Origin: Eledone cirrhosa | Lineage: Eukaryota | Reading direction: 5' to 3' | NCBI GenBank assembly: GCA_964016885.1 | Contig: CAXHJY010001220.1 | Coordinates: 1-61,896 of the forward strand | Length of the DNA stretch: 61,896 nt | Shown here: positions 1 to 60,322 of the stretch, piece after piece | Position numbering within the stretch: the stretch's first letter is position 1 | Layout: the number at the start of each line of letters is the position of its first letter | Notes under the pieces: generated by a model | Seen by the model: only the letters and a program-made list of their open reading frames with translations | Told to the model about the DNA's origin: nothing | Database searches by the model: none | Made by a program: the position numbers and the translations under genes

Positions 1-228
1 AGGTTTCCTACACGAGTGAAAGTATAAGGAAAAATTATGAAATCGAAAATGCAACTGGAGTCTTTTTTTTTAAATATATATATTTATTTGGTTCCTTTTC
101 CGGTTTCGCAGTTCTTCTGCTTTTCAAAAGTAGAATTGAGATGGAGGGTCTGTGGTTTTTCTCACATGGTTTTTCTCACATTTAAAAAAGACTACTATTG
201 CATTTTCGATTTCATCTTTTTTCCTTAT
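1..228 (-). mobile_element. PLE-type terminal fragment (family E) with short fold-back arm; cut by window edge
   Basis: 1-180 is the reverse complement of 14680-14850; 181-228 re-inverts part of it and ends at TTCCTTATAT into (TA)n; hammerhead motif at ~93-130 (-) has its cleavage triplet mutated to GAA. Confidence 0.7.
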
Positions 229-730
229 ATATATATATTATGAATTATGAATTACTGTTGGCTTCTTGCTCACATTAATTTCTCTATTTTCATATATATA
301 TATATATATAATACATATATAATACATATATATATATATATATAATGTAATATATATATATTATACATATATATATAATATATATATTTTATATATATAT
401 ATATATATATATATATATATATATATATATATATATATATATTTTATATATATATATATATATATATATATATATATATATATATATATATATATATACT
501 GTATATATATATATTATATAATATATATATATATAATATACTTACTTAGTAAAACATCTCGTCTAATCATGACAAAGTAGATACAAAAATGATGTTGGTG
601 AACATAAATCCCGAACTTTACACGATCTCACTGATACACACCACTTATTTCAAACCACAGGAGGGCCTGTCATTTTCTTCTGCCACACATGTGCACTACT
701 AACGACCCCTCAGATGATGATGGTGATGAT

Positions 731-916
731 GTGTAAAGGGAGGTAAGAATGACGACAAAGGGAGAGAAAAAAAGATGAGATGGGGAGGGTTATACTTACT
801 TACTAAGTAAAGTAAAGTAAAGTAAAGTAAAGTACGTAAGTAACTACCCCCTCCCAAACTCTCATCTGTCTCTTCGCCTTTTTTCTCCACTGTCGTCATC
901 CTTACCTCCCTTACAC
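731..916. repeat. Imperfect inverted repeat (MITE-like hairpin) with (AGTAA)n core
   Basis: GTGTAAAGGGAGGTAAGAATGACGACA... pairs with ...TGTCGTCATCCTTACCTCCCTTACAC. Confidence 0.55.
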
Positions 917-1109
917 GTAAGTACCCCCCACCCCCACCTCCACCCCCTAGTCGATCTGCAACTTAACAACAACCATTCAACTTCTCTCTCCCCCCTCCCC
1001 TCCCCCCATCTCATCTGTCTCGTCGCCTAATGTTTCCCTCTAATTAAAACAATAGCTCTTTTATTGCAAAAACACATTGGACAGTGAAGTCTTCATCTAT
1101 AACTATGAA

Positions 1110-1298
1110 GAGCGGTGAATTGGCAGTATCGGTAGAGGGTTGGACGCCATGCTTTCTAGCATAGTTACGTCCCTTTACAGTCTGAGTTCAAATCCGGTGA
1201 GGTTAACTTTGCCTTTCATCCTTACGGGGGTCGATAAAATAAAGTACCAGTAATGTACTGGGTAATTGCTGGCCTTGTGCCTAAAGTAGAAACAATTA
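1110..1298 (+). mobile_element. tRNA-derived SINE, main family (~190 bp; Nin-like central domain)
   Basis: A-box-like TGGCAGTATCGG, B-box-like GAGTTCAAATCC, central CTTTGCCTTTCATCCTTACGGGGTCGATAAAATAAAGTACCAG; >25 related copies in the window. Confidence 0.85.
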
Positions 1299-57441: not shown

Positions 57442-59758
57442 TTTGCATACCACAACAAATAGATGACGAGACGGAGGCACAGTTCACCATAGCTAGAAAT
57501 AAGATTAGACAAGTAGTAGACAGGTACACTATGAGACAGAGCAGACCAGAGGCCCAACAACTTGGGATAAAACCTGTAGAAGGCTTGGTTAGCCTCAAGC
57601 AGCGCACAAGGGATGGTGAGGTAGTGTGTCTACCCACAGATAAGTCTGGTAGGATGTCAATAGATAGCATGCCGAACTACATCGAGGCAATGCAACCCCA
57701 CATCACCAACACGAGCGAAGTTGCACAACTAACACACGATGGGAGAGAAAAAATCCTCAACGCTCACATGATGATGTGGACTGACATCCTAAAGCCAAGC
57801 AGACGCACTGCCAACAACTTCGAGGCGTCTAACAATGGCATACCACCCTTGTATGGGCTCCGCAAAGACCACAAGACAGTCGACGACCCGACAATAGGAC
57901 CACCAACAAGACCTGTATGCGGAGCTAATATAGCTAGCAACTACAGGATCTCCTACTTCCTCTCAATGGTTATACGCCCCATAATCAAGATGTCCCCAGA
58001 TGTATGTGAAAGTACAGAGGACCTCCTCAGCAGAATCAGTGAGTGCAACAAAAACAGGAGCCTATCCAACTGCATAATAGGCAGCATGGATGTGGTGTCA
58101 CTGTACCCATCCATTAACATTGATTTTGCTGTGAAAAGATGTGTGGAGATGATCATTGAGAGTGAGGTGGAGTTCTGCGACGTCGACACAGACGAACTGG
58201 GCCTCCTACTTAGACTTACCTACGACACTGACTACCTAGACAGCCATGACCTTAGATGTTTCTGCCCTAGTAGACCTATAAGAGGTAGACCCCCCACCAT
58301 AACCTCAATGGCTAAAAAGACTCCCATAGGAAGGTGGATTGGGTGGACCAAAGCTATACGGACCCCCCAAAACACTGATCAGGTAAGAAAAATGGTCGCA
58401 CATGCAATAGGGGCTAGTATCAAAACTACCCTAAAGGGCCACATATTTAAGTTCAATGAGAAAATCTACACCCAAAATGAGGGAGCAGCCATCGGCGTCA
58501 GCATAGCTGGCGATGTTGCCAACCTTTTCATGGTATGGTGGGAAAGGAGACTTAAAGATCTCCTTAATGAAAGCTCCATAGACCTCATCATGTACTCTCG
58601 TTATGTAGACGATATCAATATAGTTATAAGAACACCCCCACTAGAGAGCACTAACAAGTTTGATTTAGAACGTAGCACGATGGAAAGCATCCAGCAGATA
58701 GCTAATTCCATACACCAGAGTATAACTGTAACTATAGACTTCCCTTCCAAACACCCTAACAATAGACTACCTGTATTAGACACAGAACTCTGGATTAACA
58801 CTATAGACGAGAGAGCCCAAATTCTCCACTCACACTATGCTAAACCCATGGCCTCCAAATACCTGATACTCAAAAACTCAGCAATGTCCAGTAGTGCTAA
58901 GTTTAATATTCTGATCGCAGATTTGGTACGAGTGATGAAGAATGTGTCCAGCATGTGCGACCCAACAGAAATGGAAGGACACATCCAACACTTCATCAAC
59001 CGCATGCAGTTCTCTGGCTACAACCAAAGAGACAGAGTCAGAGTATACGAAGGAGCCATGGAAAAGTATAAGACCCTCATAGAACTGGACATGAAAGGAA
59101 TTTGCCCACTATACAGGAGCAAATCATGGAATAGCTTAGATAGGGCTAGACATAAGATAGGGAAGGCCACATCATGGTACGACAACCAGAGATATCAGAG
59201 TGTCATGTTTGTGGACGCCACCCCTGGAGGGAAGTTAGCTAACCAGTGTAGAAAGGCCCTGAGAAAGACCCACTTAAAAATAAAGGTGGTAGAAAAGCCA
59301 GGAACCACCATAAAATCCCTGATCAGCAAAACCTACCCTTTTAAGAAAACCCACTGTACCAATAGGAAATGTATCATATGTAAGGTGAACCCCGGATAAA
59401 CTGTAAAACTAGAAACGTAGTCTATAGCATAAGATGTACAGAGGGTACTTGCAGAAACACGACAACAACATACATAGTTGAGACAGCTCGTAGCATAGGT
59501 GAAAGGATAGACCAACACTGGGGGGAACTAAAAGGACGAAAAAACGGGTCAGTACTATACGAACATGCTAGACAACATCATGACGGTAACATAGACAACA
59601 TAGAAATTAGAATAATATCTAAACATAGGAATGACCCAGCAGATAGGCAAATCAGAGAGGCCAGTGAAATAGAAATTAGAAGACCAAAGCTAAACAGAAA
59701 GAATGAGTGGAACAACAACAACACCCAAACAAACAACACTGACCTAAGAGAAGTATAA
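57441..59758 (+). pseudogene. Mirror copy of the PLE ORF; 1-bp deletion at ~59390 frameshifts off the GIY-YIG domain, and YIG>YIV at 59478
   Basis: GAACCCCGG vs GAACCCCCGG and TACATAGTTGAG vs TACATAGGTGAG in the left arm. Confidence 0.9.
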
Positions 59759-60025
59759 ATAAATAAGTAAATTAAATTAAATAAAATAAGATAAATAAAT
59801 ACATACACAAGCACATAAACACACACTAGTCACCCAGCAGACACAACACTATACACACTAGTCACACATCACACATAACACTATACACACACGCAAACGC
59901 ATGCGCAAAGAAGACAAAATAAAATAAGATAAACAAACAAGCAAATAAATAAATAAATATATAGACAGACTGAACAAAAAAAAAATGGCGTAGACATACA
60001 ACACAACAGGAGGAACAATGAATAT

Positions 60026-60070
60026 AACACCACTGACGATGTTGCAGATGTGCAACGAAAGATTTATGTA
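60026..60070 (+). ncRNA. Hammerhead-like motif in PLE 3' UTR (right arm)
   Basis: CUGACGA-U-GUUGCA(gaug)UGCAAC-GAAA; core and stem II good, stems I/III weak; also at ~18272-18312 (-). Confidence 0.5.
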
Positions 60071-60322
60071 AACTATATATATATGTGTTTGTCTATATTG
60101 TATCTGTATTATTTTTGACCGCCGGTCAGTCAATGGCAACATTGAGGACCGAGTAAGTTAGATCGCAGATATATATATATAAAAGACAGCGAGAAGCGAA
60201 AACCAACCAAACAGTGAGTGTGTTCTGTTATTAATTCTGGCAATATTACGCAAATATGACCCTCCCCAAATATAACAATATCTGTTTCGACACACGATTT
60301 CATATAAAAAACCTCGCAAAAC

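Follow-up and report, generated by a model that had tools for sequence, protein, structure and literature searches.

Penelope-like insertions of Eledone cirrhosa pair one tailed with one tailless end in (TA)n tracts, probably through programmed twin priming

How do retroelements of different families come to lie in (TA)n tracts in one and the same form, as two inverted arms of which only one carries a short tail? The question is raised by a 61,896-nt stretch of the Eledone cirrhosa genome (GenBank assembly GCA_964016885.1, contig CAXHJY010001220.1, forward strand; hereafter the window, which is one entire contig of the 3.0-Gb genome). Seven of the eight families concerned (A–G) are, judging by their predicted proteins, Penelope-like elements (PLEs), and the eighth (H) is non-coding. 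Writing T for a tail-bearing and N for a tailless end, we find that a head-to-head pair of arms almost always has one end of each kind, and we argue that such pairs probably arise when a single enzyme complex primes twice, at two set sites, on one RNA.

An initial annotation of the window had listed 12 TA-embedded inverted-arm insertions, and an inverted arm pair with a tail on one side is present in all 12 intervals. A (TA)3 word adjoins all 23 testable sides, against a background of 19% of window positions; the left side of the insertion at 1–228 is the contig start and was excluded. Any target-site duplications of these insertions would be hidden within the (TA)n. The TA-like end words given for families A/B, C, D, E and G are also as stated there. 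The family letters A–E and G are taken from that annotation, to which we added F (at 9981) and H (at 23568). Its list of copies was real as far as it went, but missed those at 2072–2229, 11033–11923, 16035–16414 and 16420–16671. The full set is as follows.

1–231: family E pair, truncated by the contig start; tailed arm left, N end at about 229.
1826–2021: family G short fold-back; N end 1826, centre about 1884 at a quasi-palindrome, tail 1944–2021.
2072–2229: family H copy; left, N end; right, tail.
9981–10697: family F pair; 100-nt tail 9981–10080, N end 10697.
10610–10647 (+): minimal hammerhead motif of family F, with one stem II change in this copy.
11033–11923 (−): family B solo copy; N end, both sides flanked by (TA)n.
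14142–14891: family E pair; N end 14142, tail 14828–14891.
16035–16414 (−): tailed copy of family C; its 5' end falls on the recurrent −321 site, together with a short inverted piece.
16420–16671: diverged family D pair; left, tail; right, N end.
17541–17922: family D pair; left, N end; tail 17835–17922.
18020–18461: family A pair; tail 18020–18061, N end 18461.
18787–19111: family B pair; short tail 18787–18819, N end 19111.
19168–19334: family A short pair; left, N end; tail 19294–19334.
21229–22410: family C pair; N end left, GIY-YIG fragment 21315–21716 (+), tail 22367–22410.
22459–23233: family D pair; tail 22459–22545, N end 23233.
23568–23742: family H short pair, non-coding and retrozyme-like; left, tail.
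54601–60322: young family A fold-back; N end 54601, centre 57441, internal site 60281, tail 60282–60322.
55123–57483 (−): 5'-truncated reverse transcriptase (RT)-GIY-YIG frame within the young A fold-back, 786 aa from stop to stop.
57399–59758 (+): the same frame in mirror copy, disrupted by a frameshift near 59390.
60033–60060 (+): hammerhead-like core of family A, with CUGAnGA, stem II and GAAA; stem III is non-canonical.

The two arms of the young A fold-back are 2,840 nt each and differ by four substitutions and two gap columns.

Two classes of ends and how they pair

The tabulation of endpoints, flanks and joints that the initial annotation had proposed as a check was carried out on the window and 250 further loci, which were found by pattern search of the genome. 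The 443 ends sort into two classes per family, and (TA)3 lies within 14 nt beyond 399 of 433 terminal ends but at 14% of random positions of the same loci, in line with the flank composition that had been expected. Tailless ends fall at a single BLAST offset in A (40/41), B (29/31), G (46/49) and E (18/22), and more loosely in D (30/44) and F (9/17). In family C, the 51 tailless ends found by hand among 100 listed matches are split 16/1/6/22/6 over about 10 nt. Therefore, one fixed internal nucleotide per family is a good description of A, B, G and E, a poorer one of D and F, and a wrong one of C. Because the search patterns of A, B and C extend up to the internal site, their index ends are biased towards that site.

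Head-to-head pairs called automatically in this sample are N/T in 137 of 142 cases, with four T/T and one N/N. Since T ends make up 48% of terminal ends, independent choice would predict 50% mixed pairs, and the excess has a p of about 1e-34. Hand counts, which overlap the automated set, give N/T in 148 of 155 pairs of families A–G among the first 100 listed matches per family, and in H all 17 outer ends so examined fit the rule. Genome-wide, short fold-backs of G (102–130 bp) number 1,960 T/N and 9 N/N, in a count that compares these two classes only. The rule is thus kept in all eight families, and it is kept both in pairs with long spacers and in young pairs that are 99.9% identical.

The five automated exceptions were inspected. 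The outer end of the one in C lies beyond the locus, that in E encloses 3.4 kb of unrelated DNA, and that in D consists of N/T outer ends surrounding an internal duplicate; the exception in G does stop at the internal site, following a re-start. The T/T pair in A is real, although a duplicate of it at a distance of 9.5 kb is N/T. When 60 unpaired ends were checked again, they added one N/N pair (in C, L053), seven N/T pairs and two more N/T pairs read by eye. The duplicated A insertion itself (L153/L154, C1:36133900–36145000) shares one joint between its two copies, and the right end is tailed in one and tailless in the other.

Could sites be chosen independently at each end, with symmetric products (T/T and N/N) deleted later or left unassembled? 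In its favor, palindromes that extend into (TA)n are unstable, and a few symmetric pairs exist. However, mixed pairs have equally perfect cores of up to 5.7 kb, the rule holds in long-spacer and young pairs too, and a roughly 100-fold loss would be required; we regard this explanation as very improbable.

Not every copy is two-armed, as the initial annotation had implied. Among 210 index ends, 148 have an inverted arm, 43 are solo, 18 run beyond the locus and one is uncalled.

Priming sites, arms and joints

Where copies stand in tandem, the tail runs into the following unit, as codons of the open reading frame (ORF) in A, B and C, as 5' leader in D and as the next repeat in H; no read-through beyond the tail was found in E or G, and in F it is ambiguous. 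The ORF of A and B begins within the arm, the internal site being codon 9, and an ATG at the end of A's tail was accordingly rejected as its start, whereas the tail of C likely holds the start codon. An overlap of tail and ORF start is likewise reported in the available text of PMC3846280. This continuation places both sites inside a read-through RNA, barring trimming of the RNA at that point, and under the same proviso the earlier view that one priming event takes place at the RNA 3' end is not supported.

A TAT or ATA word lies at or beside the boundary in all eight internal sites and in all five tail ends with known read-through; only 4–16% of nearby positions end such words (A–G). The commonest tailless end of family C (22 of 51) shows three pairs followed by a terminal mismatch, and so does its commoner tail end (9 vs. 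5 of 21). A primer that ends in T, left by a T^A nick, would account for these ends with a terminal mismatch better than would cleavage of a DNA copy. The other register is seen in a few ends of A, B and F.

Several further observations concern the ends. Short direct duplications of the tailless end, about 7–25 nt, occur at C1:19291927, C1:20531265 (L234), C1:201240612 (L240) and L024, and look like aborted starts followed by re-priming at the internal site. At L233 (C1:28800900–28808100) a full-length D unit begins precisely at the upstream junction's internal site, and the adjoining inverted arm carries a copy of about 200 nt of the flank. Some interrupted (TA)n tracts are themselves kilobase-scale palindromes (L151, 500–1570; L152, 7390–8129; L165, 778–2107).

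Of 134 non-tandem N/T joints, 97 could be mapped: 46 are near-symmetric (26 of them in G), the N arm is longer in 26 and the T arm in 25, so that either arm can extend further 5', as had been noted from the window. Fold-back of a cDNA that started at T cannot produce a longer N arm, and a cDNA that started at N would lack the tail, which calls for two reads of the template. Moreover, four T arms extend over just a portion of the tail and stop short of the internal site (L067, L089, L118, L177), and two more short T arms were read by eye. The hot spot of G joints is a 14-nt quasi-palindrome within the element, and a hand count among 100 listed matches assigns the joints there to the T arm in 10 cases, to the N arm in eight and to both in 14. 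Fourteen of the 16 well-mapped asymmetric joints come from copies other than the reference copy, and 12 of those 14 lie at −1 to +5 nt of overlap; short microhomology or small inserts are found at the joints.

These data bear on the alternative in which priming happens once, the cDNA then folds back and primes itself (perhaps with an antisense strand as template), and the endonuclease makes the tailless end by cutting this copy at the TA-like word. Fold-back was entertained in the initial annotation and is proposed in the parts of PMC3846280 and PMC8557442 available to us; near-symmetric joints, the quasi-palindrome hot spots and the TpA step in most internal words count in its favor. However, the longer N arm in 26 of 51 asymmetric pairs, the tail arms without overlap to the other arm and the G joints derived from either arm speak against it. 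In addition, the most frequent C end does not coincide with a TpA of the element, and both sites correspond to RT start sites in vitro according to the accessible text of PMC11167929. We therefore consider fold-back quite improbable.

If two cDNAs are made, do they share a template? Partner arms are closer to each other than to non-partners in 87 of 100 pairs, and no subfamily hybrid occurs among 16 pairs of A (47% expected at random) or 27 of G (26%). The 9 of 14 E pairs that look hybrid were dismissed, being explained by a variable T/A run; about 50 nt upstream of the internal site of E, the boundary between a T-run and an A-run varies between partner arms in most pairs, the total length staying nearly constant. 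In a dual-priming scheme, an asymmetric dimer would carry two RNAs, usually from the same source locus, with one subunit per site. This would explain long overlapping arms without strand displacement, it agrees with two A pairs whose arms differ in indel markers, and dual priming has been proposed for L1 (PMC2837659, in the text available). It nevertheless requires an unexplained asymmetry of identical subunits, it sits poorly with the lack of subfamily hybrids, and a block on a shared RNA would agree with the tail arms that halt before the internal site; we hold dual priming to be unlikely.

Recurrent joints in G and E might suggest that the asymmetry is inherited from a few palindromic masters, or that fold-backs are a sequencing artefact. 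However, 93 of the 97 mapped joints are distinct, which largely refutes this reading; the arms have diverged (median identity 97.8% in 58 asymmetric pairs), and the rule spans all eight families, which, as far as their proteins can be tested, represent three or more deep lineages. Flank interruptions read as a single continuous tract in 10 of 10 informative pairs, which also led us to reject symmetric flank synthesis from both ends, since the two flanks of a pair read together as one pre-existing tract. Diverged arms, unlike ends and a continuous flanking tract together argue that the fold-backs are not artefacts, and we find the masters-or-artefact explanation hardly credible. When four sequencing runs were assembled against one arm, a single contig resulted, which terminates in (AT)n at 60281, and usable joints were not recovered. 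Separately, some 5' ends recur in paired and solo copies alike, at −321 in C (near 16397 in the window; L031, L038, L058) and at about −140 in E, and may mark an RNA start or an RT stall.

Taken together, near-obligate pairing, arms of which either may be longer, short tail arms and a shared source argue against fold-back of one cDNA. We consider it probable that these insertions result from programmed twin priming, in which one RT-endonuclease complex uses one read-through RNA with two set internal sites. The initial annotation suggested that a cut (TA)n is primed once on each of its strands and that the cDNAs are then joined; this is thus the best reading of the data, and the genome-wide counts back it. 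The complex would cut both strands, most nicks falling at T^A, and prime from both 3' ends at the two RNA sites, each (TA)n primer annealing through 3–4 bases with a terminal mismatch tolerated. The sites, 40–100 nt apart, would lie on a single RNA held by a dimer. The downstream RT would usually displace the upstream cDNA and sometimes stall before it; the two cDNA 3' ends may then anneal at inverted microhomology, and host repair would close the gap. A solo copy would result where one end failed to be extended or its arm was lost. By analogy, the process would be L1-type twin priming turned routine and site-programmed.

Several points weigh against programmed twin priming. Solo ends amount to 43 of 191 resolved index ends, tailed and tailless in similar number, which suggests that coupling is not needed at every insertion. 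Real symmetric pairs exist, namely the T/T pair in A, the N/N pair in C and the nine N/N fold-backs in G. The 37 of 134 joints that could not be mapped, and the near-symmetric ones that fold-back would give too, do not favor it, and the two A pairs with differing indel markers (read by eye) look as if two templates had been used. Variation in B, C and F is too low for the arm-source test, and the similarity of arms could partly reflect later gene conversion. Finally, according to PMC11167929, in its available text, the start site shares no homology with the cut DNA and does not differ from one strand to the other.

Whether twin priming is the standard route of endonuclease-bearing PLEs across clades, and of their non-autonomous hammerhead repeats, we would call an even question. 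In that case a dimer on one read-through RNA would seat both 3' ends on two UAU-containing sites, the tail would be a ruler of the distance between the two active sites, and the inverted arm would be a built-in product rather than a rearrangement.

The families and other features of the window

The predicted proteins indicate that families A–G are PLEs with an RT followed by a GIY-YIG endonuclease (EN) at the C-terminus, from at least three deep lineages. The best named protein match is a hypothetical protein of Octopus vulgaris (68%). The RVT_1 profile match is weak (E 1.7e-4, below Pfam's cut-off), and PF01541 (GIY-YIG) matches the C fragment at E 2e-5. A DKG/DKT-type motif is found in A, B, C, D and F, and YxDD in A, B, D, E, F and G and in other copies of C; a GIY-YIG motif ends the proteins of A, B, C and E, and a Hydra-type EN was read by eye in D, F and G. 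EN lies downstream of RT in all coding families, not at the N-terminus as in Naiad and Chlamys. Partial tandems of the pseudo-long terminal repeat (pLTR) type are present, with tandem units of 4,147 nt in A and 3,333 nt in C and read-through in B, D and H.

Families D, F and G have a CxCX5C linker and no CCHH or Cys pair within GIY-YIG, with DKT in D and F (the corresponding region of G was not covered); following the definitions in the available text of PMC8557442, these are Hydra-clade motifs. As to the RWK motif, RWR is present in F only. By the same definitions, A, B and E, with a CX2-5CxxC linker and a Cys pair inside GIY-YIG, match Neptune/Nematis motifs. Family C has the Cys pair but lacks that linker and is left unplaced. 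The proteins of A/B, C and E are mutually about 25% identical. Long asparagine-rich stretches occur in the N-terminal halves of the A and B proteins (L020–L022, L245), and similar stretches have been reported for Adineta elements.

The initial annotation had taken all eight families for PLEs, which does not apply to H. This is a non-coding tandem repeat of 430–500 bp (a 498-nt unit with a longest frame of 86 aa, found in arrays) with a putative minimal hammerhead-like fold; it has no BLAST match to the reference copies of A–G, and no autonomous partner was identified among them. Its non-coding tandem unit and hammerhead-like motif make it a candidate non-LTR retrozyme by sequence. Putative hammerhead cores are present in A, B, F and H and degenerate in G; our descriptor found none in the reference copies of C, D and E, and Rfam gave no match within the window.

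Whole-genome anchor counts, which are exact pattern matches and thus lower bounds, are at least 14,357 (A), 28,800 (B), 1,880 (C), 11,188 (D), 17,078 (E), 458 (F), 4,888 (G) and 26,131 (H). With about 105,000 exact matches in all, this insertion route seeds many palindromes in microsatellites.

Some other features of the window deserve mention. The flanks of the young A fold-back (54380–54570 and 60323–60540) share a unique GAAA interruption, and the left one, about 190 nt, is inverted relative to the remaining tract, as if target DNA had been copied inverted during insertion. More TA-flanked pieces, of families outside A–H, lie at 12786–13230, 18524–18776 and 23371–23523; the end at 12786 recurs next to other insertions, and a CTGATGA word lies within 23371–23523. 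Minisatellite arrays occupy 29199–34397 and 37226–39947, with periods of about 44/88 bp and 33 bp. A SINE-like repeat of about 190 bp has some 20 copies in the window (e.g., 3286–3471 and 19415–19594), several in inverted pairs.

Relation to known systems

Much of the shape of these insertions is known. The inverted-arm form, a preference for (TA)n and a pair of RT start sites on either side of the tail have been published (PMC8557442, PMC3846280, PMC11167929, each in its available part); taken together with the accessible texts of PMC2837659, bioRxiv 2024.12.14.628481, PMC13282606 and bioRxiv 10.64898/2026.07.22.740005, these papers cover the inverted copy, the one-sided tail, the (TA)n preference and the two start sites. 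What the present data add is the near-obligate pairing of tail with no tail, quantified across clades; a pairing count or a twin-priming model for PLEs was not found in the literature searched, where older reviews, including Arkhipova 2006, may state more. As far as their available text goes, PMC8557442 names the origin of inverted arms and one-sided tails in PLEs as an open question, and in PMC11167929 what follows initiation is left without validation. A near-obligate rule in families whose proteins are so distant excludes independent site choice and weakens the published self-priming model. Therefore, the rule discriminates between published models in a directly testable manner, and it also bears on how retrozyme-like repeats spread.

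Compared with the canonical EN-bearing PLE unit (Pen2a_Av in PMC3846280; the legend of Fig. 2 in PMC8557442), in which the inverted arm appears as optional or frequent in the portions available, the arrangement in E. cirrhosa is near-obligate, and the tails of D, F and G reach 78–100 nt rather than the published 30–40 nt. The closest biochemical parallel is PAc, a Poseidon element of Anolis, for which the available text of PMC11167929 describes both strands being cut and extended in vitro, two internal RT start sites bounding the tail, an AT-rich target and a predicted dimer. It differs in that pairing was unmeasured and homology to the cut DNA was reported to be lacking, whereas here both sites carry TAT/ATAT and each end uses one of them. 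In twin or dual priming of L1 (PMC2837659, as available), the second strand likewise has its priming point inside the RNA, and the two cDNAs are joined head to head. However, in L1 this is occasional, the second site varies and an inversion-deletion results, whereas here the second site is set, at a distance of 40–100 nt, and the overlap of the arms usually forms an inverted duplication. Lastly, family H resembles the animal non-LTR retrozymes, described in the accessible text of bioRxiv 10.64898/2026.07.22.740005 as non-autonomous derivatives of PLEs, in being non-coding, tandem, 430–500 bp long and provided with a minimal hammerhead-like motif. It differs from them in following the two-ended tail rule in (TA)n, which points to target-primed reverse transcription of the PLE type rather than to rolling-circle spread.

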